Part shown: one piece after another, positions 2,651 to 51,329 of the stretch
How the letters are laid out: every line of letters starts with the position of its first letter
Numbering within the stretch: position 1 is the first letter of the stretch
Source of the DNA: Ylistrum balloti
Taxonomy: Eukaryota
Direction of reading: 5' to 3'
DNA: 64,000 nt
Assembly (NCBI RefSeq): GCF_031769215.1
Contig: NW_026782326.1
Span: forward strand, 715,432-779,431
Made by a program: the position numbers and the translations under genes
The notes under the pieces: generated by a model
The model's input: only the letters and a program-made list of their open reading frames with translations
Told to the model about the DNA's origin: nothing
The model's database searches: none

Positions 2651-2729
2651 ATATACTAACATAACCACTCCTTATACAAGCCATCATGGTATAACCTGTC
2701 TGTGAGCTGGTCTTGTGGGCTACCTTGGG

Positions 2730-3270: not shown

Positions 3271-3312
3271 AACTTGTGGTAAGATTGACTCTGTGTTTTG
3301 AACGAAAGCACC

Positions 3313-4230: not shown

Positions 4231-5745
4231 ATGGAAATTGACACAGGAGCCGCGGTCATTATTTGCTCGGAGAAGGTGTATACTGATCATCTCTCGCAAT
4301 TGTCCTTGCAAAAGCCCACGGTCAAGCTGAAAGACTATGGTGGCGTGAACGTGCCATTACGCGGTGAGGTAACCGTTCCAGTGACATACGGAAATCAGAG
4401 CCATAACTTGTTGTTGCGCGTCGCATGTGGCAACCGTCTTTCGTTGTTGGGTCGGAACTGGCTAAGCCACATCAAGCTCGATTGGCCAAGTATATTTACT
4501 GTGACCCAGTCAGTGCAGTCGCAGCGCATTGATACGTCGGTCAAGGAACTGTTGGTCAAGCATCACAAGCTGTTCCAGAAAGGTCTGGGAACGATACAGA
4601 AATTTAAGGCTCTAGTAAAGGTTTGGTCGGATGTACAGCCCATTTTCTGTAAGGCCCGGGTGGTGCCTTTTTCCCTAAAGGAAGCCTTAGAGAAGGAGCT
4701 TCATAGACTTGAAAATGAAGGCATTGTGTTGCGAGTCGAACAAAGCGATTGGGCGACTCCAGTTGTCATTGTGCCGAAGGCCGATAAGTCAATACGCCTT
4801 TGTGGCGACTTCAAGGTGACTGTAAACAAGTGCTTGGATGAACAACAGTATCCACTTCCGAATGTGGAAGACATGTTTGCACAGCTGGCCGGTGGTCAGA
4901 AGTTTACGAAGTTGGATTTATCGCAGGCGTACCAGCAGTTAACATTAGACGAGGCCTCAGAGAAATATTTAACCATAACCACACACCCTGGATTATTCAG
5001 GTATCATCGGTTACCGTTCGGTGTTGCATCGGCCCCCGCTATCTTTCAGTCAGTCATGGATCAGATATTGCAGGGAGTACCGCATACCATGTGTCGTATC
5101 GACGATATCCTGGTTACGGCACCAAGCGACAGTGAACACATCAAGATCTTAGGTGAAGTGTTGCGTAGACTCGAGGAGCACCACGTCCGTCTACGCGAGG
5201 ACAAGTGTAAGTTCATGGAGGACACCGTCGAGTATATGAGTAATATGGTGGATCGCGAGGGAATCCATTCCACTGAGGCGAAAATCGAAGCGATCAAGAA
5301 CGCGCCAAGTCCGACAAATGTGTCTGAACTGAAATCATTTTTAGGACTTTTGAACTATTATGGTCAGTATATGTCGAATCTGTTGACCAAGTTGCAGCCT
5401 TTGCACGAGCTTTTGCGACAGGATAAGTCCTGGAACTGGACCTTACAGTGCGAGTGCGCGTTTCGGTCGTGTAAGGACCAGTTGTCAAGTGATCGCATGT
5501 TGGTTCATTACGACATGAACAAGCCGCTACGGTTAGCGTGCGATGCATCTGCTTATGGGGTCGGAGCTGTGATCTCCCACATTTGTGACAACGGAGAGGA
5601 GCGTCCCATTGCATACGCGTCACGAACTCTATCGGCGAGTGAAAAGAATTACGCTCAGGTGGAGAAGGAAGCGTTGGGTCTGGTGTTCGGTGTCCGGAAG
5701 TTTCACAAGTATTTGTATGGGCGTCACTTCACAAGGATGCAGTGA
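4231..5745 (+). CDS. pol: Pol polyprotein: aspartic protease (IDTGAA), reverse transcriptase, RNase H
   Basis: DTG protease motif. RT region YLTITTHPGLFRYHRLPFGVASAPAIFQSVMDQIL with IDDILV as a YXDD-like box. RNase H region LACDASAYGVGAVISH. The ORF ends abruptly at ...GRHFTRMQ*, where the expected TDHKPL...ARW segment is missing, indicating an internal deletion. Confidence 0.85.
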   Translation: MEIDTGAAVIICSEKVYTDHLSQLSLQKPTVKLKDYGGVNVPLRGEVTVPVTYGNQSHNLLLRVACGNRLSLLGRNWLSHIKLDWPSIFTVTQSVQSQRIDTSVKELLVKHHKLFQKGLGTIQKFKALVKVWSDVQPIFCKARVVPFSLKEALEKELHRLENEGIVLRVEQSDWATPVVIVPKADKSIRLCGDFKVTVNKCLDEQQYPLPNVEDMFAQLAGGQKFTKLDLSQAYQQLTLDEASEKYLTITTHPGLFRYHRLPFGVASAPAIFQSVMDQILQGVPHTMCRIDDILVTAPSDSEHIKILGEVLRRLEEHHVRLREDKCKFMEDTVEYMSNMVDREGIHSTEAKIEAIKNAPSPTNVSELKSFLGLLNYYGQYMSNLLTKLQPLHELLRQDKSWNWTLQCECAFRSCKDQLSSDRMLVHYDMNKPLRLACDASAYGVGAVISHICDNGEERPIAYASRTLSASEKNYAQVEKEALGLVFGVRKFHKYLYGRHFTRMQ

Positions 5746-5757
5746 TGGGCTCTTATA

Positions 5758-7324
5758 TTGTCCGCGTATCAATACGATATTGAGTATCGGAGGGCCGAAC
5801 ATCATGCCAATGCAGACGCGTTTTCGCGGTTGCCTGTCAAAAGTGACGGGAAGTCGGAGGAATTGGAGGTCTACCACTTCACTCAGTTGAATGACTTACC
5901 AGTGACATCTGAGGACGTTGCGAAGGGGACGAGAGGTGATGTAGTGCTGTTGAAGGTACTTGACTATACACTGCGAGGTTGGCCTAATTATGTGTCAGAT
6001 CGCGACCTGCAACCATTTCATCAGCGCAGGAATGAACTGTCTACTGAGCAGGGTTGTGTGTTGTGGGGTTTGCGTGTAATCATCCCACAAGCCTATCGTG
6101 AGCGTATTCTGGCCCAACTACATGAACAGCATGTTGGAATGAGCCGGATGAAATCTCTAGCCCGGAGTTATCTGTGGTGGCCTGGCCTGGATAAAGACAT
6201 CGAAACAGTGGTCAGTGCCTTTAATGCATGTCAGGCTACGAGGAAAATGCCCCTGGTGGCACCCCTTCACTCCTGGTCATGGCCTACTCATGTTTGGCAG
6301 CGTGTCCACATAGACTTTGCGGAGAAAGACGAGATATTTTCTTGTGGTTGTGGACAGTCACTCTAAGTGGGTTGAGGTGACTAATATGACAACCACTACT
6401 CCTGAGAGGACTATCGAAGACCTTCGGTCACTCTTCAGTTCTTATGGCCTACCTGAAGAGGTTGTCTCTGATAATGGCCCCCAGTTTACCTCAACTGAGT
6501 TCGAACAGTTCATGAAACGGAACGGGGTCAAGCATACTCTAGTAACGCCCTATCACCCAGCTTCAAATGGAGCAGCGGAACGCTCAGTCCAAATCTTGAA
6601 ACAAACGCTTCAAAAGTAGGTTTTTGATGGTGATGAACAATATACAATTCAGCATAGGCTCAGTAACTTCTTACTGAAGTATCGATCTACTCCACAGACT
6701 GTTACGGGTGTATCACCAGCTGAATTATTTCTTCAGCGTCAGCTACGCACACCTCTCTCGTTGTTGAAACCTGACACTGGAAATCGCGTTCAACGGAAGC
6801 AAGCTGAGCAGAACCGACAACATGACAAAGGGCGAGTTCGGGTTCGAACATTCTCACCGAAACAGACAGTGCGGGTGAGGAATTTCAGGGGTGGTCAGGA
6901 AAAGTGGATGCCAGGTACGATAGTGAGACAGCTAGGTCCTCATACTTATCTCGTACGGGTAGGACCAAACATTCGCTACACCCATGTTGGTCATATCTTA
7001 TCGTCAGAGGAGGAATCATTATTTGACGATTTATCCGTGGTGTCTAATTCGGGTTCAAACCAGTCGCAAGTGGATACACCCGTGGTACTACCAGAGACGT
7101 TCTCGCGTTCTCCAATACCGTCTAAGGAACCTGAAACACTTAAGGTGCCCATCTCTTTACCTGACGCCTCAGCAGTCGTAGCACCGATTCCAACTCCTCA
7201 GCTGGAATCGTCGACGAGTGACCTTCAGACACCCGTTGCGTCGAGCACTAGCCCGGTCGTTCGTCGTAATCCACCTAGGAACCGTCAGCCCCCACAAAAG
7301 TTGAATTTGTTTGTTGGCCATTAG
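5758..7324 (+). pseudogene. int: Integrase region of the same element, disrupted by an in-frame stop at 5743-5745 and a +1 frameshift near 6330-6360
   Basis: Zinc-binding HHCC region (HEQHVGMSRM...CQ) in frame 1. The DDE core (FLVVVDSHSKWVEV...SDNGPQFTS...TPYHPASNGAAER) lies in frame 2. A C-terminal GPHTYLVRVGPN module sits in ORF 6761-7324. Three separate ORFs are needed to cover the region, so it is non-functional as read. Confidence 0.75.
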
Positions 7325-9300: not shown

Positions 9301-10547
9301 CCTTGGAACCAAGGGGAATATTTTGATTACCAAGATCCAAATAAAATTTCAAGGTGTCATAAAGAATTCACAATTAATTGCTATATTTCCATAAAAATGT
9401 CTGAAACATTAATTTTGAAATCGACTGGACAACAGACACGATAATACATCAGACCTTTCTTAAAAATTTGACAAATTATTTTAAGAAATAACAAAACACT
9501 TTTAAGATTGTGTTCTCTATGTTCATATTACACATGTATAACATGTACATCTTTATTATAATTCTTATTAACAGGTCTCATGCCTAATTTAATGTTAAAT
9601 GTAGTAGCTGAACATTAACACAAATAATTGTTAATATGAGTTGAGTTCCTGGCTAGCATTAGTATTATACACCTCTGTAGTCAATGTAGTCTGATGAAGA
9701 TAACAATGTTGAGTTATGAAAGAAGTTTTTTTAAAGTCAGATTTAAAACTAAGTTCAAAATAAATGTTTATCACAGGAAACCAAAAAGAGTGGACACTAG
9801 TTCAGCTGAGGTAGCGAGTACTTCTTGTACAGAAAATACTACTGTGGTTGGGGAGGAAGATCTGCATAAAGTGCCTAATGATCATGAATACCTGAGGTCA
9901 TATTGGTCTCTTGTAGAAGAGATAAAGGTACATAAAGTGTATTTAGAAATCAAGAACCTGGTTAAGTTGAATGTCTTTCTTCATCCAATAACTTTTAACA
10001 AGTCTCCTTATTCTGTACATATTACACAAAGGATATGTTTGATAAGATCTTTTTTACATCAAGATAAAACAATATACTATTTGATACATGAAATTTGAAG
10101 TACATGCAAGCCTCGATGACATTCAAGTTATTTCTCCATTGTATTGTAATATAATAAAAATTCAATTTGCATTTTTTAATGTCTTGAATAATGTATTGTA
10201 CAGGATGGTACCTGTAACATAATCAATGGTTTAATTCAGGAACTGCAAGTACATGTTACTGATCTTGAGAGAGAAATAGCAGATCTGAAGTCCAAGAAAC
10301 ACCCATTTACACTTGATCAAATAAAACATTTTAATCTTTTCTCACAAAATTTAATGAAATAAGATATTGATTTATTCTAATAAAACCTGATACATTTAAA
10401 TGGAGTTACATCTTCGTATAAAATGAAAGATCTATTAAGTAATGAAACATCAAAATAGAGTTGCACCTTTTTGTTAAATGAAAGATCTATTAAGTAACAA
10501 CCTGAAACTTTTTTACAAGATTTTACATAGAAATGCATTATCTGTAG

Positions 10548-11357
10548 ATGCTGATGTACACATCACTGAAGGCAGAGAAATTTCTCATCATTGATGCAAC
10601 ATTGAAAAGATTTCCTCTAAACTATGAGGATGGATGGACCCCGATTTCCATCTCAAGATCAGACCAGCTCCTTATGTGCCTGATGAAACTGAAGATGAAT
10701 ACCCCTCTCCTTGACCTTGCTGAGCGCTTTTGCACGAGTAAATCAACAATACACAACATCCTGACCACACATATCTTTACTTTACATGAGGTTTTTTTTC
10801 AGGGTATGATGGAAAATAATATCCCTTCAGTACTTAAATGTAAAGCATCTATGCCTTCTAGTTTTGGGGATTTCAGTAGCTGTCGTCTAGTTATTGATGC
10901 CACTGAAGTGACACAAGATGTCCGTGGCCTTGATATGAAAGCCCAGTCCCAGACTTACAGCTCATACAAAAACCGACACACTGTAAAGTCTGTTACAGGT
11001 GTTGCTCCAAATGGAGCTGTAGGATATGTAAGTAAATTGTACCCTGGCAGCACATCTGATGTTGGCATTGTAGAGCACAGCAACATGCTTGCTCAGTTAT
11101 CTCCAAGGGATATGATATTTGCAGATAAGCGCTTTACTATTTACCCTTTACTACCCCAAAGTGTCCTGAACATTCCACCGTTTTTAAAGGACAAAGGACA
11201 GTATACACCTGCAGAGGTCCAAGTGTGCCGGAAGATTGCTAGGTCGCGAATTCATGTAGAGAGAGTCAATGAGAGAATCAAAAACTTTGAAATTCTTTCC
11301 CACATACCTCAGCAGTTTAGACACATCAGTACAATTTTTTTTCAAGGGTGTTCATAG
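10548..11357 (+). CDS. Harbinger/PIF-type transposase (HTH_Tnp_4 plus DDE_Tnp_4; HARBI1-like)
   Basis: LLMCLMKLKMNTPLLDLAERFCTSKSTIHNIL is an HTH. VIDATEV..., YSSYKNRHTVKSVTGVAPNGAVGYVSKLYPGSTSD..., IFADKRF... and ...RIHVERVNERIKNFEIL match the DDE_Tnp_4 motif series. An upstream 'FTLDQIKHFNLF' at about 10290-10330 resembles the N-terminal motif of this transposase family but is out of frame, so introns or decay are likely. Confidence 0.8.
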   Translation: MLMYTSLKAEKFLIIDATLKRFPLNYEDGWTPISISRSDQLLMCLMKLKMNTPLLDLAERFCTSKSTIHNILTTHIFTLHEVFFQGMMENNIPSVLKCKASMPSSFGDFSSCRLVIDATEVTQDVRGLDMKAQSQTYSSYKNRHTVKSVTGVAPNGAVGYVSKLYPGSTSDVGIVEHSNMLAQLSPRDMIFADKRFTIYPLLPQSVLNIPPFLKDKGQYTPAEVQVCRKIARSRIHVERVNERIKNFEILSHIPQQFRHISTIFFQGCS

Positions 11358-13600: not shown

Positions 13601-14443
13601 ATGATTGCAGTAAGACCCTCCTCAAGATCATCCCAAAAGACGGCGGCAATCAGTACAAATTTGAGTGCAGTGCAGATGCTTAAGTATGAACTACTCAAAT
13701 CCTTCAGTGACACAAACTTTGTTAACAAGTACCAAATTGCTGTAAAAATTGAAACTATCACAGATGCTAAGGGCAACTCCCCAGAACTAATTGTGAGAGT
13801 ATGCAACAGACTCAACTCAGGGGCACCAGGGAAAAGACAGAAGTTTGCTATAAACATGTACCACACCCAATCTTCCCTCCTGATTAATGGTCGATATGCT
13901 TCCCTATTCCACGATGAAATACTACCCGAAATGGTAAAAAACATCAAAGAAAAACCCGGCATGACACATCTAGACAAACAGATTGCGGGTGTTATAGATA
14001 GATACCTGGAAAAGAGCATAGCAGACATGACTCGTTTAGATGAATTATCTGGCAATTCCATCATCGATGAAGATGTTCTAGCTGTCGAGTACAATCCCGG
14101 TAATGCCACAAGGAGCAGTGAGCAAGATATAGATATCGAGACATGTCATCACTGTGAAAACTTTACCGATGAGGGCATACAGTGTGACACCTGTAAGCGA
14201 TGGAACCACTACAAATGTGAGAATTTTGATACCATACTTGAAGACTTTTATAGCGGCGACAACAGTACGGAATATAACTGTATATCCTGCAGAGAACTCA
14301 CAAACCAACCAAAATTCATGTCCGGTATGGTGGAAGAGGAAACAGATAACCTCAGACAGGATGAAGTACATAACCTGGAATCCACACACCACGGCGAACT
14401 CACAGACTTCAGCCTTACTGAAGTAAAAGAGACAGCAAGATAG
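13601..14443 (+). CDS. Repeat-associated ORF with a C-terminal PHD-type zinc finger (probably a retroelement ORF1-like protein)
   Basis: CHHCENFTDEGIQCDTCKRWNHYKCENF...YNCISC is a C4HC3 finger of the same style as the LINE ORF1 copies at 33345-33581 and 35247-35708. The start codon is uncertain because the ORF track allows alternative starts. Confidence 0.4.
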   Translation: MIAVRPSSRSSQKTAAISTNLSAVQMLKYELLKSFSDTNFVNKYQIAVKIETITDAKGNSPELIVRVCNRLNSGAPGKRQKFAINMYHTQSSLLINGRYASLFHDEILPEMVKNIKEKPGMTHLDKQIAGVIDRYLEKSIADMTRLDELSGNSIIDEDVLAVEYNPGNATRSSEQDIDIETCHHCENFTDEGIQCDTCKRWNHYKCENFDTILEDFYSGDNSTEYNCISCRELTNQPKFMSGMVEEETDNLRQDEVHNLESTHHGELTDFSLTEVKETAR

Positions 14444-15712: not shown

Positions 15713-16087
15713 TTAGTTTTTTCTTTGGTGTTCAAGTTCATCTTCTGCTAACTTTCTTTTGTTTCTTTGTTCCTGTGTCCTTCCTTTCTCTTTTTCCTTC
15801 TCAAGATGTTCCATATACCTATGTCTGGCCCCTTGACAACTAACTAACAAATCTTTTGTAACAGACACATTTAAAACACCTCCTACACCGTGGACATGAT
15901 CACAAATTAGCCTTTGGGCAACTACTGTTTTATCTTTCATATTTTCAGTTTCAACCTTTGCATTTACAGAAAAGCCACGTTCGACTGAAGCTTGTCCATG
16001 AGACGACAGAAGTATCATTTTGGTAATTCTGAAAATGTTGATATATTCTGGCTTTCCCATGTGTAAACTGTAGAAGACATCAAGCAA
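15713..16087 (-). CDS. hAT-family dimerisation domain (hATC) exon: 3' end of a hAT-transposase-like (ZMYM1/GTF2IRD2-like) gene
   Basis: ...LSSHGQASVERGFSVNAKVETENMKDKTVVAQRLICDH is the canonical hATC motif (S.ERvFS......R.RL). Confidence 0.6.
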   Translation of the reverse strand: MLDVFYSLHMGKPEYINIFRITKMILLSSHGQASVERGFSVNAKVETENMKDKTVVAQRLICDHVHGVGGVLNVSVTKDLLVSCQGARHRYMEHLEKEKEKGRTQEQRNKRKLAEDELEHQRKN

Positions 16088-16219
16088 GTCTTGAATCCTC
16101 TGAAAATGGATTGAAAAGGTCTGACCCTATGATAGGAATGGCTTCCAAAAAGGTTGTATATTCAAGGACACAAGTATCACATTCATTTTCATGAATCCTG
16201 TTGAGACTGACTAACGTTT

Positions 16220-16840
16220 CTAAAAGCATATGCTTACAGATTTATTACATTTAACCATTTCTCTGGGATTCAGTACTGCTAAATTTTTGGATAAAGGACT
16301 TTTGTCACACACTTTTTTCACAAGTTCAAGAATGCATTTTTTACATTCCATTCGAAAATTCATTACTTGTCTGTCACTTAAATTGTGTTTCTTTTTTGCA
16401 TTTTTCAGTGATCTAACAGCAGCAAAACCAATTTCTATTTTGTTATGTAGAAGATGTGTGTCAGTTACATCAAGATCTATTGATGTCAAACTTGAAACAC
16501 CGTCAATGACCTCCTCCTTCAAACCCTGCTTAAGCATAGCTTTCACAATGCGTTGGAGTTCTGTGTACAGAAATGGGACCATAGGGCGATCAGTTTGAAA
16601 ATTTCCCATGAAACCTGCCAACTGTTTGGTAACAAACAGAAAGAATTCCAACTTTGCTTTTATTAGTTTATCATTTACACCTTCCTTGATAGCCTCATAT
16701 GAGTTGTAGTTTGGTTTATTAATAACATGTGATTCACATTTCTGCACATAAACTTTGAGTTTAGGGAGCAATTCAACCGCTCTCTCGGCTACAGGTACAT
16801 TCTCCATCCATCTGTGACTAACAAATTTTGATGGCAGCAT
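16220..16840 (-). CDS. Middle exon or exons of the same hAT-like gene
   Basis: Lies on the same strand immediately upstream of the hATC exon. Truncated in copy 2 (22912-23184), where the duplication junction cuts it. Confidence 0.5.
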   Translation of the reverse strand: MLPSKFVSHRWMENVPVAERAVELLPKLKVYVQKCESHVINKPNYNSYEAIKEGVNDKLIKAKLEFFLFVTKQLAGFMGNFQTDRPMVPFLYTELQRIVKAMLKQGLKEEVIDGVSSLTSIDLDVTDTHLLHNKIEIGFAAVRSLKNAKKKHNLSDRQVMNFRMECKKCILELVKKVCDKSPLSKNLAVLNPREMVKCNKSVSICF

Positions 16841-16999
16841 TGTGGTTCCAGTTACACAAATATACTAAACAAAAAAAAGAAAGGTAACACTACTTTATTC
16901 TGTGATTAATTAATTAACCCCTTCATAAATCCTTACCAATCATGTACGAATAAAGTAATTGATCAATTCTAATAAAACTGCAGTCATGGTTCATTATAA

Positions 17000-18170
17000 A
17001 ACTTTGCGTTCAGTTGATTTTATTTGACTGTAAAGGACGTTGGGGTCAATTTCAAAGGTAACTACATTAGTAACGGGTATGGCCACCGTTTGCGAAGTAA
17101 ACAGCATTGCAGCGTCATCGCATGGAACTCGTAAACCGGCGGATAATTCGAGGAGAGATGTTGTTCCATTCAGCGATCAAGGCTTGGGCCAGCTCCTGCA
17201 AGTCGCCCAAGGACGTCCCAGACATGCTCAATCGGTGCCAAATCAGGTGAATTAGATGGCCAATCTAACACCTGTACGTTATTCTGCTGCAAGAAAGTTC
17301 TGCTGACGCGACTGGTGTGCGCTGGTGCGTTATCCTGTTGAAAAATGGCGCCAACGCCATGGCGTTTTAAGAATGGCAGAACCACTGGTCTTAAAATTTC
17401 GTCCCGATATCGAGTGCCGGTTAAATTGCCATTTAACACAACAAGCCTGATACGAGTCCCCCAAAAATACCACCCCAAACCATTACACTTCCGCCGCCAA
17501 AGCGGTCCCGTTCTGTGACGCAGCAGTTCGCAAAACGCTCCCCTCGTCGCCTCCACACTCTGGACGCCGCGCTTTCAATTGGTAGGCCCTCAATCTGTTG
17601 CGGACTTTTAGGGGAGACACACGACAACCAAACAATGTCCTTGTAGTCTCTACTGCGGTTACGAATCGATTGCGCAAGTGTATCAATCGTATACGACGGT
17701 CATCCCTGGCGGTCGTTTTACGGGGTCGGCCGCTTCGGGGACGATCGGATGTTGACCTAGTTTGGTTTAAACGACTTATCAACTGGCAAATTGTCTTAAC
17801 ACTGCAACCAAAATGCCGTGCAACTCGACGGCGAGACTCCCCAGCCTGGATCATGCCTACAGCCCTTTCTCTCTGTACTTGTGACAAACGGGACATGATG
17901 ATAAAGTTGATAGATAGCAAGATTCGGTGATTTCTAAGTCCTAAGGATCTAAGAAACAGTTGTCAGTTTGAATGTTTATGAAATTCAAGCGAAGATACAA
18001 GTTAGTCGCAAAAAAACCTCCTGCAGCTCTTTCGCTAATACAGACTTGAATGATTTTGGTAACCCCCTTGGATTTTGTAGTGTAAAACATTACCATTTTC
18101 TAATATTGCACAAACATAATTTTGTTTTCACTCATTTACAGGTATTCGCCCAGGAGATATGTTAACCTTT
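17000..18170 (-). mobile_element. Tc1/mariner (Tc1-like) element, degraded transposase, inserted between exons of the hAT-like gene
   Basis: Minus-strand ORFs carry the Tc1 N-terminal paired-like HTH (RSGRPRKTTARDDRRIR...) and the DDE C-terminus (IFQQDNAPAHTS...VLDWPSNSPDLAPIEHVWD). The transposase is split over three frames. TIR termini could not be pinned by eye, so the coordinates are approximate. Confidence 0.75.
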
Positions 18171-18530
18171 CTTTTTTTGTTGAGTATATAATCCTCTCTT
18201 TTAGCTGGACTATCAAAAATTTGAAATGAAAATCTGCAGTATTCTACATAAAAATGTAAATTAAACATTGAATTTATACCATAGCATGCACCATTTCTAT
18301 TTTCATAAATAAAATTTGATGACTGCGTTAATTATCAATATTAATGCACATTTTTCGCTCGTCAATTATTTTGACAACTACGTATGTATATACACATGCA
18401 GTTAACTACATACCGGTATAAATGTACATCATGCATGGGATTTATTTAGAATAACATGTACCCATGTATATCATGACATTAATTAGTGACATAATATATT
18501 TCAATTATTGATGATACAGTTAACAACTTA

Positions 18531-19616
18531 TCAATTCATGTCATTGCTGTACAATTTTACATGTATATAAACTTCATTCTTGCATGTAATTACCTTAAAC
18601 AGATAGTATAATGAGGACAAAAAAGTTGACATGTTCCACTCTGTTTTCTGAAATCCAGTCTTGAATGCGTTATGTACTATGTGGAGTCCACATGAACCAT
18701 TGTTAATCAAATCTACATCATGGTCATTCTTCATTCTGTTCCTCAATAATCCATAGAATTTCCAGTTTACATTTGGACCATCCATCGAAACCTGCAGGAC
18801 ATGTTTAAGATGATTTGTTTCAAGTCCACTCAAGCCCTCCAAAAAGTGCTTTAAAACATCTTCAGAGGAACAGTGTCCCATAAATTGGGAGTTAAAATAC
18901 CTGGAACTGATACTATCAGATTCACCATCCTAGAGTCTTAATAAAATGTCCATCTGTTTCAACTGCATTTTTTTGTTCAGACTCTCGTCAAACATTATCA
19001 CGAAGTCACCAGTAAGTTTCTTCTGTAACAAAGACTTAAGATAGTCCGCTATCCCAAACACGCACATGTATCTAGATTTCGCCTCCCCACAGGAAAATCC
19101 ACTCGCTATGTTACTATCACTAAACGTGACTTTAAATAACTTTGAAACATTTTCGTTTGACTTATACGAGATGCGAGATACTATTGTAACCCACACAATT
19201 TCTGCTTTCAACACGTCATTTTTTGTTACGAAGTCAGTCATTCTCATTGTCACAGACGATCGTTCTGCACTACTTGTAGTACTTGATGACGGCTGAGGAT
19301 TATTCGGCGACGTTTCCATCGATTCATTTTCTTTTTTAACAGGAATTTTAGACTGTTTTGACATAGATGCGGCAAGTGTTTTATGCTTTTCTGATTTTTC
19401 GTGGCTTTTTAATGCCGACTCGCCCATCTTTCCAACATCTAACGCTTTCTCACACAAAGTACAGCGAGCTTTATTTCGCTCTCCTTTGATCCCCCGTACC
19501 CACACATATCGCGTTTCCCACTGTTTGTTTGTAAACACACACATGGAAAGGCATATCATCGATAGAAAACTAGGCCAAGCGCAAAGATGAGTCACTGCCA
19601 ACACACACGTGTACAT
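18531..19616 (-). CDS. N-terminal exons of the hAT-like (ZMYM1-like) gene: zinc-finger region plus DUF4371-like region
   Basis: ORFs 18930-19616 (CTLCEKAL...KSHEKSEKH zinc finger; ...FVIMFDESLNKKMQLKQMDILLRL) and 18531-18881 (...MDGPNVNWKFYGLL...) resemble the DUF4371/hAT N-terminal region found with hATC domains in ZMYM1-type proteins. Confidence 0.55.
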
Positions 19617-20180
19617 TCAAAATGGCAGTTCATAATCAATAACATTCGGAACACTTTTACTTTTAGGTAGCTCATGTAGAAGAACACAGAGATTAATGTC
19701 TGGGTCATTGCTACACATATGGTAAAACATTGAAACGAAAGTGAAAAACAACGATGAAATACGGAGAAAAAAACGACAGTGCTTACAGAAAGCTATTCTG
19801 GCAAAAATTGATTTAATTCAAGGACTTTTCAAGATAATTAGCTTAGTTCCCAGGACTTTCAAGGTATTTTTTTTAAATTCCAAGACTTTTACAGGCATCA
19901 GCTGAAATGCATGGACTTTTCATTTGCGTACGAACCATGTTTTATTATATGATAAAAAGTATTTTATAGCTAGATTGGATAAGAAACCGTTCAGGATACA
20001 CTTTAATAACGAAAGTGAAAGTAAAGGTTATTCCAAGGAGTCCGTGGTCATTCGGAGAAATACAAGTATTTCAACCAAGTTGTAATACATCCTGTATGTG
20101 ATTATAAACAGATAACCCCACAAAGGTTTGCAAGTATATATTAGTGAAAACAGTGGAATAAATAACTCTTACCAGTTACT

Positions 20181-20894
20181 ATGGATACTCCGATATATTT
20201 CTATCATAATACATCACATACATCTGAAACTGCGATAAGAGAAGATGATATCTTGGAGCCACAGGTTTATAATCCTCCTCAAAATTGGATGAGATTAGTA
20301 AGTCATCCAGTACATGTACCAGACGGGGTGTTTTTCTGTGCCACACTCTACTTTGGGGATCTCCCAACTATTTCACCATATGGCGAGAGACGAGTGAGGA
20401 TTCCTATCGATGATGTCTTGCGACAACTCGGGGGGAACGTTAAACTGTATTCAGGGGAACCAACTCAAGCTGGAAACAACACTTATGTCAGGATGATGCT
20501 TGTGAAAGAAGATGACGACTTTGATGTATTACAGCATATGAAGCAAGAAAATATAGCCAGTAATCAGTGGTTAAGACTGGCTGGAGGATACCAAGTTGCA
20601 TGTAGACCAACATGGGTGTACATCTATGTTCCCTATCCAATTAGTGTCAAAGGCTGTTCTTGGGATACAGGTATGTATCTACAATTAAATGTATATCAAC
20701 ATATACGGTTGATTTGTATATATACAATAGTACTTGACGGTTCATTCTCAAATTCCACCCCACCTTCACAGTTCAAACAACAAAAAGTAGAATTGCTGTT
20801 CTGTCAAACCTGGTTGAAAAAGGTCAGTCAAGGGTCCAGATCAATGAGGTCTTTAAGTGTTTATGAAAGTGCCCTTAAAAAGAGCTTGCATTAA
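20181..20894 (+). CDS. Unknown 237-aa ORF (copy 1). Probable intron at about 20669-20771 (gtatgt...ttcacag), which would give a C-terminus ...SWDT|VQTTKSRIAVLSNLVEKGQSRVQINEVFKCL
   Basis: Real ATG at 20181; the ORF is intact in both duplicate copies. No recognisable domain. Confidence 0.45.
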   Translation: MDTPIYFYHNTSHTSETAIREDDILEPQVYNPPQNWMRLVSHPVHVPDGVFFCATLYFGDLPTISPYGERRVRIPIDDVLRQLGGNVKLYSGEPTQAGNNTYVRMMLVKEDDDFDVLQHMKQENIASNQWLRLAGGYQVACRPTWVYIYVPYPISVKGCSWDTGMYLQLNVYQHIRLICIYTIVLDGSFSNSTPPSQFKQQKVELLFCQTWLKKVSQGSRSMRSLSVYESALKKSLH

Positions 20895-22682
20895 CATAAA
20901 GCAATGTACAGCTGTAATAGGAAGAGTAAAGGAAATATTCGATCTTTAGCTGGACACATTACCGCTCAACCATACAGGCTAAAGGGTGACTTGTTCTTTA
21001 AACTTCTACACAATTCCCTCCTTCACAAAGTCTTCGACTCCAAAGACAACAACAACCCAGGTCCAACATCTGAAAGGAAGCATCTTGATCTCCTATAGAT
21101 TCTACTCTTGGACAAATCTGCCATAAGAAGGAGTAATGGGAAAACATCGCGCTGTCCCCGCTGGGGTTCGAACTAGTGACCCTTCAGCCTCTACCTAGAC
21201 ACTCTACCACTCAACTAAATGGTGATCCTCATTAAACATGGCTACTAAGGCAACCTGTTTATGTGTGAATTTGTTACAAGTGGACAGTAAAAGTACCGGC
21301 CTTTATAGATGGGTACTTTCTTTTAAAGAGGACGCCTTAATAATTTTGTGTTTGCGATATAGAGGTAGCCTTCAGACAGGTGACTTTTATATAGAGATGA
21401 CCTTTACAAACAGTTGGTTTCTATATTGAGGTAGTCTATATAGACAGGTGTTTTATCTATAAAGGTGATCTTACAGATAGTTGTATCCCATAGATAAGCC
21501 TACACTGCAGATTCGACTTCACTTTGTAGGAAAAAATGTTTTAAAGTTATAATGCTTGAATTTAGTTCGTAGGTATCTTAATGATTGCTGTCTTTTTTTT
21601 CTTGCAGTGAAACTGATCTAGTGGTGGATTACCTAAAGGTGCCCCTACCATCATCAAAGGGATTTTATCTGACGAAACATTTCTACAAATCTTAACATCA
21701 CTGAAATAGTATGATTGATTTGAACTATATATTCAAATTTTAGATGGGGTCTCTCATGTGTACTAATAAGGTGTCTATATGAAAAAAAGGATAAAGTACA
21801 TAAGTATGCCAGTATTACACATGGAATTGCTTCAACGTAATTGAATGGATTTGATCCATTCTCAGAGTCATGATAGTTCAAAAAAGGAAAATTGAAAATT
21901 CATTTTCATTACCAGGTATATGCTTCTGTACGTCTTATAACACTACAATGATTACCATCTATGTAAAACACTGTATTAATGCTGTTATCATGATCAATTA
22001 TTATAAAACTTTTGTTGTTTAATAATCAAGTTACAGAGACTGCCATATTTCAAATTGACTTAGCTTAAACAATCATTGGAACTAAAATTTACTTATTTTT
22101 TATATTTTAAAAATAGTTTTTCTGTTATTGAAACATGAATTTTGATTCAAATTTTTCTTAGTCTAGATTTTTACCTATATTATTTTTACTGTATATTTTG
22201 GAGCAATACCTATCTGCTTTGCTTTTGCCAGCTGTGATCTTTTGCACATATGTGTTGAATTTAGTCTTCTTGCAACATGTTTAGCAATTGTAAATGTTGT
22301 CAATTTAATTTATTTTACCAATTTACAAGTATCATTTTTCAGATTTATCAAATACACAATTTATACACAATAAACTTAATGTTCATATATAGTCATTGTG
22401 GAGCTTCCTTTCTTATTATAACGTGTGATGAGTACTGTTACCAAAATTTGATTAAAACCTATTCTGTTATGGATTAAATAAAATCCGGAGTAAGACAATA
22501 ATGATATACATTTTCACATAACCATTACTCTAACTGAATCCATTAAACTGTTTTATTGTGACTACCTGGTTACATCCCGGCACATGCTGATTGTATCTCA
22601 TGTAGATTTTAAATTTCTATCTCAATACTTATCATATGGAATTATAAGCTGAATGAAATTTGTCGGTAGAATACTACCTTAT

Positions 22683-22923
22683 GTATGATAGTTCTGGGTG
22701 ACGTAGAATTCAAGTTCAGGAGTACGATACATGTAGTTATGTGTGGGGTAGAATTCCAGTGGTGGAGTATGATAGTTCTGGGTGGGTTAGAATTCCATCG
22801 GTGGAATATGATAGTTCTGGGTGACGTAGAATTCCAGTGGTGGAGTATGATAGTTCTGGGTGACATAGAATTCCAGTGGTGGAGTATGATAGTTCTGGGT
22901 GGGGTAGAATTCTAGTGATGGAG
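22683..22923. repeat. 37-bp minisatellite (gtagaattccagtggtggagtatgatagttctgggtg), about 6.5 units, at the end of duplication copy 1
   Basis: Tandem units each contain a GAATTC site. The duplication junction at 22923/22924 lies inside it. Confidence 0.9.
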
Positions 22924-23343
22924 TATAGGGCGATCAGTTTGAAAATTTCCCATGAAACCTGCCAACTGTTTGGTAACAAACAGAAAGAATTCCAACTTTG
23001 CTTTTATTAGTTTATCATTTACACCTTCCTTGATAGCCTCATATGAGTTGTAGTTTGGTTTATTAATAACATGTGATTCACATTTCTGCACATAAACTTT
23101 GAGTTTAGGGAGCAATTCAACCGCTCTCTCGGCTACAGGTACATTCTCCATCCATCTGTGACTAACAAATTTTGATGGCAGCATTGTGGTTCCAGTTACA
23201 CAAATATACTAAACAAAAAAAAGAAAGGTAACACTACTTTATTCTGTGATTAATTAATTAACCCCTTCATAAATCCTTACCAATCATGTACGAATAAAGT
23301 AATTGATCAATTCTAATAAAACTGCAGTCATGGTTCATTATAA

Positions 23344-24514
23344 AACTTTGCGTTCAGTTGATTTTATTTGACTGTAAAGGACGTTGGGGTCAATTTCAAA
23401 GGTAACTACATTAGTAACGGGTATGGCCACCGTTTGCGAAGTAAACAGCATTGCAGCGTCATCGCATGGAACTCGTAAACCGGCGGATAATTCGAGGAGA
23501 GATGTTGTTCCATTCAGCGATCAAGGCTTGGGCCAGCTCCTGCAAGTCGCCCAAGGACGTCCCAGACATGCTCAATCGGTGCCAAATCAGGTGAATTAGA
23601 TGGCCAATCTAACACCTGTACGTTATTCTGCTGCAAGAAAGTTCTGCTGACGCGACTGGTGTGCGCTGGTGCGTTATCCTGTTGAAAAATGGCGCCAACG
23701 CCATGGCGTTTTAAGAATGGCAGAACCACTGGTCTTAAAATTTCGTCCCGATATCGAGTGCCGGTTAAATTGCCATTTAACACAACAAGCCTGATACGAG
23801 TCCCCCAAAAATACCACCCCAAACCATTACACTTCCGCCGCCAAAGCGGTCCCGTTCTGTGACGCAGCAGTTCGCAAAACGCTCCCCTCGTCGCCTCCAC
23901 ACTCTGGACGCCGCGCTTTCAATTGGTAGGCCCTCAATCTGTTGCGGACTTTTAGGGGAGACACACGACAACCAAACAATGTCCTTGTAGTCTCTACTGC
24001 GGTTACGAATCGATTGCGCAAGTGTATCAATCGTATACGACGGTCATCCCTGGCGGTCGTTTTACGGGGTCGGCCGCTTCGGGGACGATCGGATGTTGAC
24101 CTAGTTTGGTTTAAACGACTTATCAACTGGCAAATTGTCTTAACACTGCAACCAAAATGCCGTGCAACTCGACGGCGAGACTCCCCAGCCTGGATCATGC
24201 CTACAGCCCTTTCTCTCTGTACTTGTGACAAACGGGACATGATGATAAAGTTGATAGATAGCAAGATTCGGTGATTTCTAAGTCCTAAGGATCTAAGAAA
24301 CAGTTGTCAGTTTGAATGTTTATGAAATTCAAGCGAAGATACAAGTTAGTCGCAAAAAAACCTCCTGCAGCTCTTTCGCTAATACAGACTTGAATGATTT
24401 TGGTAACCCCCTTGGATTTTGTAGTGTAAAACATTACCATTTTCTAATATTGCACAAACATAATTTTGTTTTCACTCATTTACAGGTATTCGCCCAGGAG
24501 ATATGTTAACCTTT
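23344..24514 (-). mobile_element. Tc1-like element, copy 2 (transposase ORFs identical to copy 1)
   Basis: ORFs 23384-23599, 23514-23900, 23827-24264 and 23942-24274 have translations identical to those in copy 1. Confidence 0.75.
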
Positions 24515-24874
24515 CTTTTTTTGTTGAGTATATAATCCTCTCTTTTAGCTGGACTATCAAAAATTTGAAATGAAAATCTGCAGTATTCTACATAAAAATG
24601 TAAATTAAACATTGAATTTATACCATAGCATGCACCATTTCTATTTTCATAAATAAAATTTGATGACTGCATTAATTATCAATATTAATGCACATTTTTC
24701 GCTCGTCAATTATTTTGACAACTACGTATGTATATACACATGCAGTTAACTACATACCGGTATAAATGTACATCATGCATGGGATTTATTTAGAATAACA
24801 TGTACCCATGTATATCATGACATTAATTAGTGACATAATATATTTCAATTATTGATGATACAGTTAACAACTTA

Positions 24875-25960
24875 TCAATTCATGTCATTGCTGTACAATT
24901 TTACATGTATATAAACTTCATTCTTGCATGTAATTACCTTAAACAGATAGTATAATGAGGACAAAAAAGTTGACATGTTCCACTCTATTTTCTGAAATCC
25001 AGTCTTGAATGCGTTATGTACTATGTGGAGTCCACACGAACCAATGTTAATCAAATCTACATCATGGTCATTCTTCATTCTGTTCCTCAATAATCCATAG
25101 AATTTCCAGTTTACATTTGGACCATCCATCGAAACCTGCAGGACATGTTTAAGATTATTTGTTTCAAGTCCACTCAAGCCCTCCAAAAAGTGCTTTAAAA
25201 CATCTTCAGAGGAACAGTGTCCCATAAATTGGGAGTTAAAATACCTGGAACTGATACTATCAGATTCACCATCCTAGAGTCTTAATAAAATGTCCATCTG
25301 TTTCAACTGCATTTTTTTGTTCAGACTCTCGTCAAACGTTATCACGAAGTCACCAGTAAGTTTCTTCTGTAACAAGGACATAAGATAGTCCGCTATCCCA
25401 AACACGCACATGTATCTAGATTTCGCCTCCCCACAGGAAAATCCACTCGCTATGTTACTATCACTAAACATGACTTTAAATAACTTTGAAACATTTTCGT
25501 TTGACTTATACGAGATGCGAGATACTATTGTAACCCACACAATTTCTGCTTTCAACACGTCATTTTTTGTTACGAAGTCAGTCATTCTCATTGTCACAGA
25601 CGATCGTTCTGCACTACTTGTAGTACTTGATGACGGCTGAGGATTATTCGGCGACGTTTCCATCGATTCATTTTCTTTTTTAACAGGAATTTTAGACTGT
25701 TTTGACATAGATGCGGCAAGTGTTTTATGCTTTTCTGATTTTTCGTGGCTTTTTAATGCCGACTCGCCCATCTTTCCAACATCTAACGCTTTCTCACACA
25801 AAGTACAGCGAGCTTTATTTCGCTCTCCTTTGATCCCCCGTACCCACACATATCGCGTTTCCCACTGTTTGTTTGTAAACACACACATGGAAAGGCATAT
25901 CATCGATAGAAAACTAGGCCAAGCGCAAAGATGAGTCACTGCCAACACACACGTGTACAT
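24875..25960 (-). CDS. hAT-like N-terminal exons, copy 2
   Basis: ORFs 24875-25225 and 25274-25960, with 3 aa differences each from copy 1. Confidence 0.55.
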
Positions 25961-26523
25961 TCAAAATGGCAGTTCATAATCAATAACATTCGGAACACTT
26001 TTACTTTTAGGTAGCTCATGTAGAAGAACACAGAGATTAATGTCTGGGTCATTGCTACACATATGGTAAAACATTGAAACGAAAGTGAAAAACAACGATG
26101 AAATACGGAGAAAAAAACGACAGTGCTTACAGAAAGCTATTCTGGCAAAAATTGATTTAATTCAAGGACTTTTCAAGATAATTAGCTTAGTTCCCAGGAC
26201 TTTCAAGGTATTTTTTTAAATTCCAAGACTTTTACAGGCATCAGCTGAAATGCATGGACTTTTCATTTGCGTACGAACCATGTTTTATTATATGATAAAA
26301 AGTATTTTATCGCTAGATTGGATAAGAAACCGTTCAGGATACACTTTAATAACGAAAGTGAAAGTAAAGGTTATTCCAAGGAGTCCGTGGTCATTCGGAG
26401 AAATACAAGTATTTCAACCAAGTTGTAATACATCCTGTATGTGATTATAAACAGATAACCCCACAAAGGTTTGCAAGTATATATTAGTGAAAACAGTGGA
26501 ATAAATAACTCTTACCAGTTACT

Positions 26524-27237
26524 ATGGAAACTCCGATATATTTCTATCATAATACATCACATACATCTGAAGCTGCGATAAGAGAAGATGATATCTTGGA
26601 GCCACAGGTTTATAATCCTCCTCAAAATTGGATGAGATTAGTAAGTCATCCAGTACATGTACCAGACGGGGTGTTTTTCTGTGCCACACTCTACAATGGG
26701 AATCTCCCAACTATTTCACCATATGGCGAGAGACGAGTGAGGATTTGTATCGATGATGTCTTGCAACAACTCGGGGGGAACGTTAAACTGTATTCAGGGG
26801 AACCAACTCGGGCTGGAAACAACACTTATGTCAGGATGATGCTTGTGAAAGAAGATGACGACTTTGATGTATTACAGCATATGAAGCAAGAAAATATAGC
26901 CTTTAATTGGTGGTTAAGACTGGCTGGAGGATACAAAGTTGCATGTAGACCAACATGGGTGTACATCTATGTCCCCTATCCAATTAGTGTCAAAGGCTGT
27001 TATTGGGATAGAGGTATGTATCTACAATTAAATGTATATCAACATATACGGTTGATTTGTATATATACAATAGTACTTGACGGTTCATTCTCAAATTCCA
27101 CCCCACCTTCACAGTTCCCACAACAAAAAGTAGAATTGCTGTTCTGTCAAACCTGGTTGAAAAAGGTCAGTCAAGAGTCCAGATCAATGAGGTCTTTAAG
27201 TGTTTATGAAAGTGCCCTTAAAAAGAGCTTGCATTAA
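26524..27237 (+). CDS. Unknown 237-aa ORF, copy 2
   Basis: About 14 amino-acid differences from copy 1; ORF intact. Confidence 0.45.
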   Translation: METPIYFYHNTSHTSEAAIREDDILEPQVYNPPQNWMRLVSHPVHVPDGVFFCATLYNGNLPTISPYGERRVRICIDDVLQQLGGNVKLYSGEPTRAGNNTYVRMMLVKEDDDFDVLQHMKQENIAFNWWLRLAGGYKVACRPTWVYIYVPYPISVKGCYWDRGMYLQLNVYQHIRLICIYTIVLDGSFSNSTPPSQFPQQKVELLFCQTWLKKVSQESRSMRSLSVYESALKKSLH

Positions 27238-29026
27238 CATAAAGCAATGTACAGCTGTAATAGGAAGAGTAAAGGAAATATTTGATCTTTAGCTGGACAC
27301 ATTACCGCTCAACCATACAGGCTAAAGGGTGACTTGTTCTTTAAACTTCTACACAATTCCCTCCTTCACAAAGTCTTCGACTCCAAAGACAACAACAACC
27401 CAGGTCCAACATCTGAAAGGAAGCATCTTGATCTCCTATAGATTCTACTCTTGGACAAATCTGCCATAAGAAGGAGTAATGGGAAAACATCGCGCTGTCC
27501 CCGCTGGGGTTCGAACTAGTGACCCTTCAGCCTCTACCTAGACACTCTACCACTCAACTAAATGGTGATCCTCATTAAACATGGCTACTAAGGCAACCTG
27601 TTTATGTGTGAATTTGTTACAAGTGGACAGTAAAAGTACCGGCCTTTATAGATGGGTACTTTCTTTTAAAGAGGACGCCTTAATAATTGTGTGTTTGCGA
27701 TATAGAGGTAGCCTTCAGACAGGTGACTTTTATATAGAGATGACCTTTACAAACAGTTGGTTTCTATATTGAGGTAGTCTATATAGACAGGTGTTTTATC
27801 TATAAAGGTGATCTTACAGATAGTTGTATCCCATAGATAAGCCTACACTGCAGATTCGACTTCACTTTGTAGGAAAAAATGTTTTAAAGTTATAATGCTT
27901 GAATTTAGTTCGTAGGTATCTTAATGATTGCTGTCTTTTTTTTCTTGCAGTGAAACTGTTCTAGTGGTGGATTACCTGAAGGTGCCCCTACCATCATCAA
28001 AGGGATTTTATCTGACGAAACATTTCTACAAATCTTAACATCACTGAAATAGTATGATTGATTTGAACTATATATTCAAATTTTAGATGGGGTCTCTCAT
28101 GTGTACTAATAAGGTGTCTATATGAAAAAAAGGATAAAGTACATAAGTATGCCAGTATTACACATGGAATTGCTTCAACGTAATTGAATGGATTTGATCC
28201 ATTCTCAGAGTCATGATAGTTCAAAAAAGGAAAATTGAAAATTCATTTTCATTACCAGGTATATGCTTCTGTACGTCTTATAACACTACAATGATTACCA
28301 TCTATGTAAAACACTGTATTAATGCTGTTATCATGATCAATTATTATAAAACTTTTGTTGTTTAATAATCAAGTTACAGAGATTGCCATATTTCAAATTG
28401 ACTTAGCTTAAACAATCATTGGAACTAAAATTTACTTATTTTTTATATTTTAAAAATAGTTTTTCTGTTATTGAAACATGAATTTTGATTCAAATTTTTC
28501 TTAGTCTAGATTTTTACCTATATTATTTTTACTGTATATTTTGGAGCAATACCTATCTGCTTTGCTTTTGCCAGCTGTGATCTCTTGCACATATGTGTTG
28601 AATTTAGTCATTCTTGCAACATGTTTAGCAATTGTAAATGTTGTCAATTTAATTTATTTTACCAATTTACAAGTATCATTTTTCAGATTTATCAAATACA
28701 CAATTTATACACAATAAACTTAATGTTCATATATAGTCATTGTGGAGCTTCCTTTCTTATTATAACGTGTGATGAGTACTGTTACCAAAATTTGATTAAA
28801 ACCTATTCTGTTATGGATTAAATAAAATTCGGAGTAAGACAATAATGATATACATTTTCACATAACCATTACTCTAACTGAATCCATTAAACTGTTTTAT
28901 TGTGACTACCTGGTTACATCCCGGCACATGCTGATTGTATCTCATGTAGATTTTAAATTTCTATCTCAATACTTATCATATGGAATTATAAGCTGAATGA
29001 AATTTGTCGGTAGAATACTACCTTAT

Positions 29027-30047
29027 GTATGATAGTTCTGGGTGACGTAGAATTCAAGTTCAGGAGTACGATACATGTAGTTATGTGTGGGGTAGAATTC
29101 CAGTGGTGGAGTATGATAGTTCTGGGTGGGTTAGAATTCCATCGGTGGAATATGATAGTTCTGGGTGACGTAGAATTCCAGTGGTGGAGTATGATAGTTC
29201 TGTGTGGGGTAGAATTCCAGTGGTGGGGTATGATAGTTCTGTGTGGGGTAGAATTCCAGTGGTGGAGTATGATAGTTCTGGGTGGGGTAGAATCCCAGTG
29301 GTGGAGTATGATAGTTCTGTGTGGGTAGAATTCCAGTGGAGGAGTATGATGTTTCTGTGTGGGGTAGAATTTAAGTAGTAGAGTACGATAGTTCTGGGTG
29401 ATGTAGAATTCCAGTGGTGGAGTATGATAGTTCTGTGTGGGGTAGAATTCCAGTGGTGGAGTATGATAGTTCTGTGTGGGGTAGAATTCCAGTGGTGGAG
29501 TATGATAGTTCTGGGTGGGGTAGAATTCCAGTGGTGGAGTATGATAGTTCTGTGTGGGGTAGAATTCCAGTGGAGGAGTATGATGTTTCTGTGTGGGGTA
29601 GAATTTAAGTAGTAGAGTACGATAGTTCTGGGTGACATAGAATTCCAGTGGTGGAGTATGATAGTTCTGTGTGGGGTAGAATTCCAGTGGTGGAGTATGA
29701 TAGTTCTGTGTGGGGTAGAATTCCAGTGGTGGAGTATGATAGTTCTGGGTGACGTAGAATTCCAGTGGTGGAGTATGATAGTTCTGGGTGGAGTAGAATT
29801 CCAGTGCTGGAGTATGATAGTTCTGGGTGGAGTAGAATTCCAGTGCTGGAGTATGATAGTTCTGGGTGACATAGAATTCCAGTGGTGGAGTATGATATTT
29901 CTGGGTGGAGTAGAATTCCAGTGGTTGAGTATGATAGTTCTGGGCGGAGTAGAATTCCAGTGGTGGAGTATGATAGTTCTGGGTGGAGTAGAATTCCAGT
30001 GGTGGAGTATGACAGTTCTTGGCGGAGTAGAATTCCAGTGATCATTT
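29027..30047. repeat. 37-bp minisatellite, about 28 units (same family as 22683-22923)
   Basis: Long tandem array. The 60-260-aa ORFs listed in it on both strands are repeat artefacts. Confidence 0.9.
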
Positions 30048-51280: not shown

Positions 51281-51329
51281 GAGCTAGACTAGATGAATTA
51301 ATGACCTTCATGAGAGATAGATAGAGGTA

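Follow-up and report, generated by a model that had tools for sequence, protein, structure and literature searches.

Concentrated amino acid replacements between two recent tandem copies of a scallop gene whose product has a predicted ADP-ribosyltransferase-like fold

Why would two neighbouring copies of a gene differ almost entirely by amino acid replacements when the DNA duplicated along with them has diverged far less? The question is raised by a 64,000-nucleotide stretch of the genome of the scallop Ylistrum balloti (contig NW_026782326.1, positions 715,432 to 779,431; hereafter the window, numbered from its first letter), where the gene LOC132555545 lies within a tandemly duplicated unit. 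The original prediction, made from the letters of the window, described two 237-aa open reading frames (ORFs) at 20181-20894 and 26524-27237 and saw in them the signature of diversifying selection, or of conversion from a third paralogue. Both frames do translate. Between them exactly 14 residues and a single synonymous codon (V150, GTT>GTC) differ, and their 21 nucleotide differences (2.9%) agree with the divergence of about 3% given there. The clustered replacements tttggggat>aatgggaat and agtaatcag>tttaattgg are also present, while two residue labels need correction, R82Q to R81Q and Q95R to Q96R.

The ORF is longer than the gene product, since LOC132555545 encodes 167 aa, not 237 aa, in two exons (163 + 4 aa). 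ORF residues 1-163 are 100% identical to RefSeq XP_060075878.1 and XP_060075879.1, the isoforms X1 and X2 of LOC132555545 (uncharacterized protein). In copy 1, on the forward strand, coding exon 1 (20181-20670) covers M1-T163 and the first base of codon 164 and encodes the PHYHIP_C-like domain with the predicted ADP-ribosyltransferase (ART) fold discussed below. It is followed by an intron of 937 nt (20671-21607, GT...polypyrimidine-AG) and by the coding part of exon 2 (21608-21621), which completes V164 and adds K-L-I-stop. Copy 2, on the same strand, has an intact coding exon 1 (26524-27013) with 12 replacements and one synonymous change relative to copy 1, an intron (27014-27950) with conserved donor (GGTATGT) and acceptor (...TTGCAG), and an exon 2 coding part (27951-27964) reading V-K-L-F-stop. 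Exon 2 was located by pattern search as AG followed by TGAAACTGATCTAG at 21606 and AG followed by TGAAACTGTTCTAG at 27949, each after a polypyrimidine tract; the former matches the VKLI C-terminus of P0001 (XP_060075878.1). Of the gtatgt...cacag intron described originally, the donor GT at 20671 stands, whereas the acceptor is the AG at 21606-21607 and not the 'cacag' near 20771.

Homologues point the same way. The alignment of the scallop proteins P0002 and P0003 ends at ...CxWD (residue 162/163), the P0002 contig has GTGAG exactly there, and tails in the family are typically short (4-5 aa) and begin with Val (VEELK, VQRI, VERF, VGCV). ORF residues 164-237 are therefore intron read-through, and K199P and G218E, listed before among the protein differences, are intronic changes. 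The intron stays in frame for 74 stop-free codons past the donor in both copies (20671-20894 and 27014-27237), which creates the apparent 237-aa ORF. A stop-free run of this length has a probability of about 0.006 given the composition; chance or an intron-retention isoform could lie behind it. In the homologue contig L001 the 74-codon tail has no conserved counterpart.

Start codon (ATG), splice donor, splice acceptor and stop codon are intact in either copy, and no difference falls within the 217 bp 5' of the ATG. Isoform X2 (P0004, XP_060075879.1, ending in ...VKLF) joins copy 1 exon 1 to copy 2 exon 2, about 7.3 kb apart, and carries copy-1 residues all through exon 1. No further paralogue or third copy is present within the window. 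With a RefSeq model, scallop homologues and a confident structure model, LOC132555545 is a real, intact gene, and the same three lines rule out a chance ORF.

The duplicated unit extends over 16581-22926 (6,346 bp) in copy 1 and 22925-29270 in copy 2. Self-BLAST aligns the two at 99.24% identity over 6,347 columns, and self-comparison of these 6.35-kb copies counts 46 mismatches and two single-base indels. At the junction, which consists of satellite and the middle of a transposase-like ORF, ...GGAGTAT is followed directly by AGGGCGATC, with 2-4 bp of microhomology, so that a 39-bp satellite abuts the interior of the transposase-like ORF. Since a novel junction of this kind is the product of a true duplication, the duplication is treated here as real: the unit was recently duplicated in tandem, mediated by microhomology, in a region rich in transposons and satellites, although only reads can prove it.

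Differences between the copies are spread very unevenly along this unit. There are none in the 1,746 bp at 16581-18326, which include a Tc1 element (0%, as noted originally), and nine in the adjoining 800 bp of transposase-like remnants at 18327-19126 (~1.1%). The 5' flank has two in 480 bp (0.42%), exon 1 has 18 in 490 bp (3.67%), the 937-nt intron has five differing nucleotides in four events (0.53%), and the 3' region has five in 1,061 bp (0.47%). The coding part of exon 2 has one in 14 nt, a length too short for a meaningful percentage, and the satellite has eight (3.28%). Exon 1 therefore holds 18 of the 48 copy-to-copy differences in the unit. Non-coding DNA other than satellite differs at 21 of 5598 positions (0.375%), in line with the flanking divergence of about 1% or less reported before. 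Equal divergence of the flanks, which would have spoken against any peculiarity of the gene, is not what is seen, as this value is far below the nonsynonymous divergence (dN) of 0.044.

In the 167-codon coding sequence, 19 nucleotide differences make 13 replacement codons and one synonymous codon (V150). The replacements are D2E, T17A, F58N, D60N, P75C, R81Q, Q96R, S127F, Q129W, Q138K, S160Y, T163R and I167F, the last of them in exon 2 and the other 12 in exon 1. Nonsynonymous divergence (4.4%) exceeds the non-coding value about 12-fold (Fisher p=6.5e-12 by nucleotides), and about 9-fold when doublets are counted as single events (p=6e-8). For five of the 13 replacements, two neighbouring bases had to change. 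The five exon doublets (TT>AA, CC>TG, AA>GG, AG>TT, CA>TG) are an excess at p=1.5e-4, and four of them occupy codon positions 1-2. With the intronic AA>CC at 20775-6 added, the segment 20186-20940 contains six doublets among 22 differences (p=1.5e-5). Both the localisation of the differences and the doublet excess are overwhelmingly non-random. The excess of replacements over the surrounding DNA suggests adaptive protein change; it does not prove it, because a diverged segment may instead have been imported from another copy.

Other accounts of the replacement excess were tried and rejected. Relaxed constraint as the sole cause is ruled out, since it raises dN only to the neutral rate (~0.4%) and not to 4.4%. 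An overlapping antisense or alternative-frame ORF that would constrain the 'synonymous' sites is absent, all other frames being filled with stops. Mutagenesis resembling that of diversity-generating retroelements or deaminases is not indicated either, as there is no base bias (copy 1 bases A6/T4/C6/G3, copy 2 A7/G6/T5/C1). Transitions and transversions among the coding changes stand at 9:10, and the reverse transcriptase present in the window is part of a long terminal repeat (LTR) retroelement 14 kb off.

What kind of protein is being changed? The original prediction recognised no domain in it. The 167-aa protein is essentially one domain starting at residue 6 (the first strand), without an N-terminal hydrophobic stretch or signal peptide, and judging by its sequence it belongs to the PHYHIP_C family (PF19281) as a divergent member that stands alone. 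For the protein itself Pfam yields no match at E<=0.1; the best, to the PF19281 profile, reaches 12.1 bits (E=0.14, residues 48-94 only), below the gathering threshold of 27 bits. Over the same region this profile is matched at E<=1 by 81 of the 92 aligned family members, by some of them at 1e-35 to 1e-65 (up to 8.8e-65). The homologue search proposed as a check found the scallop proteins P0002 and P0003, which are 53-62% identical, and a close-clade profile search extended the family to 88 representatives. This profile matches P0056, P0069, P0090, P0055 and P0040 (E 1e-5 to 1e-9), and the matched regions fall within PF19281 matches of 59-219 bits. Residues G49, F52, L56, P62, S65, P66, G68, R71, Y102 and N128 reach at least 90% conservation in the family and occur in both copies, while E147 of the family is Tyr in both. 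In Y. balloti the closest paralogue, P0006 (XP_060080857.1), is 42% identical and carries the NCBI name 'phytanoyl-CoA hydroxylase-interacting protein-like'.

Local copies and fusions occur elsewhere in the family. In another scallop, Mizuhopecten yessoensis, contig NEDP02002286.1 (L005) has two to three tandem family copies at 2599-3112, 4656-4778 and 10001-10489, of which one is a fragment and one has an apparent frameshift; two annotated proteins are 55% identical to each other. Some members (P0010, P0023, P0055) are fused to retroviral-type zf-CCHC knuckles (up to seven) or to a hAT C-terminal dimerisation domain, which hints that the domain has repeatedly become associated with proteins of mobile elements.

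Structure prediction, another check proposed, gave a confident model with a predicted local distance difference test (pLDDT) score of 96, and structure comparison matches it only to ART folds. The scores are 5.2, 5.2 and 5.1 for DarT, 5.2 for a Salmonella NAD-binding effector, 4.9 for OspC3 and 4.8 for AvrPphF; further matches include PARPs, pertussis/cholera/diphtheria-type toxins and Rhs ART toxins. An earlier model with pLDDT 71 gave the same list of ART-fold matches. Foldseek against the PDB returned no significant match, and the sequence-profile link to solved structures is noise, the best being DarT1 (E=0.31) on the 'lyHvT' stretch of strand 1-helix 1. Pfam and PADLOC scans detected no ART families, and PADLOC no DarT-type match. 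The assignment suggested by the model is therefore at the level of the fold only, and at that level the PHYHIP_C family (PF19281) appears to have an ADP-ribosyltransferase-like fold.

Canonical ART motifs come in the order H/R, aromatic, Glu on a late strand. Assigned by order and secondary structure, not by residue-level structural alignment, the corresponding family positions are 9 (His in 55 or Arg in 22), 51 in G-V-x-F (F, W or Y in 84; F38/W38/Y8) and 147 in W-V-E (Glu or Asp in 69; E61/D8). The window gene has H9 and F51, and the Glu is replaced by Y147 in both copies, leaving the catalytic triad incomplete. Because both copies have Tyr at 147, the product may bind without catalysing, or may perform other chemistry. 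The short scallop clade is of the His type ('FYHxTS') and the canonical fn3-containing PHYHIP-like members are of the Arg type ('YRxKP'). Literature searches for links of PHYHIP or PHYHIPL to ARTs, or to bivalve, oyster or mollusc, found nothing relevant, and the Y. balloti genome literature contains nothing on the LOC132555545 locus.

Where the replacements fall was assessed with a family alignment (A3, 92 sequences), used for both polarity and variability. Family variability is higher at the positions that changed (mean entropy 3.13) than at those that did not (2.57, p=0.033). The sole changed position that does not vary across the family is P75, where 71 of 90 relatives have Pro. Polar or charged residues are the commonest in the family at 11 of the 12 changed exon-1 sites, which suggests that the changed positions are exposed.

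Polarised against the family, the changes appear to have occurred on both sides. F58 is derived in copy 1 (N58 being the family state), as is Q138, and C75 is derived in copy 2 (P75 being the family state). F127 and W129 are probably derived in copy 2, because the S and Q of copy 1 are closer to the D/N and P/E of the family; N60 is likewise probably derived in copy 2. Two pairs of changes spaced i/i+2 flank the near-invariant G59 (F-G-D to N-G-N) and N128 (S-N-Q to F-N-W). They lie in the loops after the 'GVFF' strand and before the 'WV(E/Y)' strand, respectively, and aromatic residues stand in the first loop in copy 1 and in the second loop in copy 2.

The reading that we favour, tentatively and a little short of an even chance, is that a probable recognition surface of a stand-alone ART-fold protein has diversified adaptively. 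Selection, acting once the two copies existed or already in the alleles that founded them, would have favoured replacements on this surface, so that 13 replacements would have accumulated against one synonymous change while neutral DNA diverged by only ~0.4%. The changes would have occurred on both copies. The doublets would be multinucleotide mutations kept by selection, or successive hits in selected codons. In ARTs, loops placed comparably to the G59 and N128 loops shape NAD and target binding. The replacements may have arisen in place or may have come in by conversion, the donor being a diverged allele or paralogue already exposed to such selection. Two sequences are insufficient to separate this reading from its rivals.

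Two groups of observations weigh against adaptive diversification. The first concerns the coding changes themselves. Since the homologues are at most 62% identical and saturated at synonymous sites, the dN/dS comparison is limited to this one pair of duplicates. The Nei-Gojobori method (NG86) gives S=106.5, N=394.5, Sd=2 and Nd=17, hence dS=0.019, dN=0.044 and dN/dS=2.33 (Fisher p=0.20), and pairwise GY94 maximum likelihood gives omega=2.61 (likelihood ratio test vs omega=1, p=0.16). The dN/dS ratio is not significantly above 1 (p=0.16-0.20), and the ratio of nonsynonymous to synonymous changes (N:S) alone is no demonstration of selection. Random placement of nine single and five double events leaves one synonymous codon or fewer in 16% of trials. 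Of the selection signature proposed originally, then, the excess of replacement divergence over the rest of the unit stands, but dN/dS>1 lacks significance; a ratio of about 1 or below, which had been named as grounds for rejection, is neither found nor excluded by omega values of 2.33-2.61. The intronic AA>CC doublet implies that mutation accounts for at least part of the doublet pattern. P75C could reflect decay of copy 2, given how the family retains this Pro. The clustering of changed sites on a surface is deduced, not measured. Finally, a collection of 15 billion proteins contains no protein model of copy 2 exon 1, and transcript evidence for it was likewise not found.

The second group concerns the layout of the differences. 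The divergent block is contiguous (20186-20940) and includes 270 bp of intron with differences at 20775-6, 20833 and 20940. Divergence of this proximal intron (270 bp, 1.5%) does not differ significantly from that of the exon (3.7%, p=0.065). The exon dS of 1.9% is five times the flank value of 0.375% (p=0.067), which fits an older imported tract. The background of the unit is itself a mosaic, 0/1746 bp being followed by 9/800 bp; at the 0.545% seen elsewhere, 1,746 bp would stay free of differences with a probability of ~7e-5 (Poisson arithmetic). Together, the contiguous block, the raised exon dS and the mosaic background fit a history in which the two copies contain segments of different age. 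Such segments could come from conversion between the copies, from conversion by an allele or third copy, or from duplication between diverged haplotypes. For 16581-19126 (compared with 22925-25470) the mosaic suggests partial homogenisation or segments of differing ancestry. The nine differences at 18327-19126 are mostly amino-acid-changing in decayed ORFs.

The strongest rival is accordingly mosaic ancestry without positive selection, which we regard as a serious contender though on balance unlikely. A tract of ~750 bp (20186-20940) in one copy would have been imported by conversion or recombination from an allele diverged by ~3% or from an unsampled close paralogue; in a variant of this scenario the duplication arose by unequal exchange between diverged haplotypes. 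In either case the richness in replacements would reflect weak constraint. Heterozygosity of bivalves is 1-3%, which makes allelic divergence of this order ordinary. Mosaic ancestry accounts for the single block reaching past the exon into the intron, for the lack of a significant density difference between exon and proximal intron, for an N:S ratio compatible with neutrality, for the raised exon dS and for the patchy divergence elsewhere in the unit, and purifying filtering would equally make replacements avoid conserved columns. A donor, however, was found neither in the 64-kb window nor among proteins, annotated or assembled: leaving aside the models of the gene itself, nothing in 5.8 billion clusters is more than 62% identical, and the nearest paralogue in Y. 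balloti is the 42% identical P0006. The conversion from a third paralogue envisaged in the original prediction gains from the overrun of the tract into the intron and suffers from the missing donor. Nor would ordinary 3% divergence be expected to contain six doublets among 22 differences (p=1.5e-5). Derived states are found on both copies, so one conversion is insufficient unless the donor carried ancestral states, and I167F in exon 2 lies 680 bp past the tract.

A locally raised, doublet-prone mutation process in the transcribed 5' part of the gene, followed by neutral fixation, is improbable in our view. Error-prone repair, translesion synthesis or templated micro-patches would be its sources, and the strong excess of adjacent double substitutions, one of them intronic, together with an N:S ratio indistinguishable from that of random mutation, is what it would leave behind. 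It is hard to reconcile with the ~7-fold fall in density around the boundary between exon and intron, with the absence of any difference from the 217 bp upstream, and with the lack of a base-specific signature either in the bases of copy 1 or in the 9:10 transitions to transversions. No germline mutator that targets exons is known to us from molluscs.

Very unlikely, too, is an assembly or polishing artefact in which alleles or collapsed repeats were placed in tandem or a chimeric consensus was produced. Identity of 99.24%, a satellite at the boundary, repeat-rich surroundings and the lack of an independent gene model for copy 2 are the usual grounds for such a suspicion. Against it, the 64-kb window contains no Ns, and the satellite/transposase-like junction with its microhomology is unique and novel. 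Errors would not cluster as substitutions in one exon while sparing frame and splice sites, and RefSeq isoform X2 uses the copy-2-specific exon 2.

We also considered a more far-reaching joint reading, which is a long shot. PHYHIP_C, including the little-understood PHYHIP and PHYHIPL of vertebrates, would be an unrecognised ART branch, and its scallop His-type branch would have been diversified by an exon-aimed germline process (templated micro-conversion or doublet-prone mutagenesis) that rewrote the G59 and N128 loops, making the tandem copies a variable recognition repertoire. Least credible of all is a chance ORF or a decaying, functionless pair of pseudogenes, for which the unconserved 74-codon ORF tail and the Cys of copy 2 at a conserved Pro could be cited, but which fails to explain conserved homologues across scallops and the wider family, the confident model and the RefSeq model, and which under relaxed constraint would reach only the neutral ~0.4% instead of 4.4%.

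The duplication lies among mobile and repetitive DNA. The Tc1/mariner-type element within the unit (16860-18189, reverse strand; ~23204-24533 in copy 2) has helix-turn-helix and DDE_3 ORFs and 30-nt inverted ends, with Pfam matches to DDE_3 (1.3e-9) and HTH_28 (1.2e-7). Transposase-like ORF remnants at 18531-19616 (reverse strand), divergent from LOC132555545, have a weak zf-C17orf113 match. They belong to a transposase-like gene at 15713-19616 (reverse strand) that was split by the Tc1 insertion, is cut short in copy 2 where the duplication breaks off, and lies 565 bp from the PHYHIP_C-like gene in divergent orientation; its 'SVERGFS' motif resembles hAT dimerisation regions. The 39-bp satellite is one breakpoint of the duplication at the right end of copy 1 (22683-22926), and its full array of 24.7 units with ~89% matches follows at 29078-30040 (29027-30040 in a wider delimitation), after copy 2. 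Several reading frames are open in this array, which coincides with the right duplication breakpoint. No known RNA was found in the intron or the unit (Rfam at E<=0.1; ARAGORN).

Upstream of the duplication are an LTR retroelement at 3298-6366 (gag, zf-CCHC, reverse transcriptase, RNase H and integrase zinc domain), a Harbinger/PIF-type DDE_Tnp_4 transposase ORF at 10548-11357 and an ORF with a weak PHD-finger match at 13601-14443. Other tandem-repeat arrays are located at 42543-44060, 44832-45527, 49628-50033, 50779-52166 and 63692-63991, with units of roughly 55, 32, 62, 56-63 and 58 bp, respectively (self-BLAST match offsets). GC skew is extreme (+0.54) in the tandem-repeat block at 42-44 kb.

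If the replacement excess is adaptive, as we tentatively prefer, a very young duplicate has been retuned at a handful of probably exposed positions, in a pair young enough for each mutational step, double-base changes included, to be read. Duplication and presence/absence variation are rampant in bivalves. If the tract was imported, the locus is an ordinary outcome of high heterozygosity and gene conversion, and a caution against reading selection from one duplicate pair. A fast-evolving young duplicate is a phenomenon already known in kind, and the ART-fold lead for PHYHIP_C is the more original by-product. It offers a testable biochemical lead (NAD+ or nucleic-acid chemistry as performed by ADP-ribosyltransferases) for the family, including human PHYHIP and PHYHIPL.

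How does LOC132555545 compare with systems that are better known? With the C-terminal domain of PHYHIP/PHYHIPL (PF19281) its product shares the motifs GV[FW]F..TL..G.LP..SP[YF]G..R..IP, Y102, N128, WV(E)..V and WD. It departs from the canonical proteins in being a domain of ~165 aa without the N-terminal fn3, which is found only in distant members such as P0069, in having 'FYH.TS' (His) in place of 'YR.KP' (Arg), and in having Tyr in place of Glu147. H-type ART-fold enzymes (the RNA 2'-phosphotransferase Tpt1/KptA, the DNA ADP-ribosyltransferase DarT, PARPs) resemble the family in the His or Arg with which strand 1 ends, the aromatic residue of strand 2 and the late-strand Glu. The window protein differs from them in having no profile link above noise and in the change of this Glu to Tyr.

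Rapidly evolving PARP/ART genes engaged in host-pathogen conflict have reportedly been described with multi-species codon models and significant site tests. Like them, LOC132555545 is a gene with a predicted ART fold and an excess of replacements at few positions; unlike them, it is represented here by one duplicate pair with non-significant omega. Tests of positive selection are said to be prone to artefacts caused by multinucleotide mutations, and the tandem double substitutions behind five of the 13 replacements inflate apparent dN in the same manner, but here an excess of ~9-fold remains with doublets taken as single events. In molluscs, young tandem duplicates with accelerated protein evolution include conotoxins, abalone lysin/VERL and snail FREPs, all of them secreted and with selection documented across many sequences. 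The window protein has no signal peptide, in contrast to these, and has in common with them a local duplication, replacement-biased divergence at a subset of probably exposed sites, and frequent multiple-hit codons.

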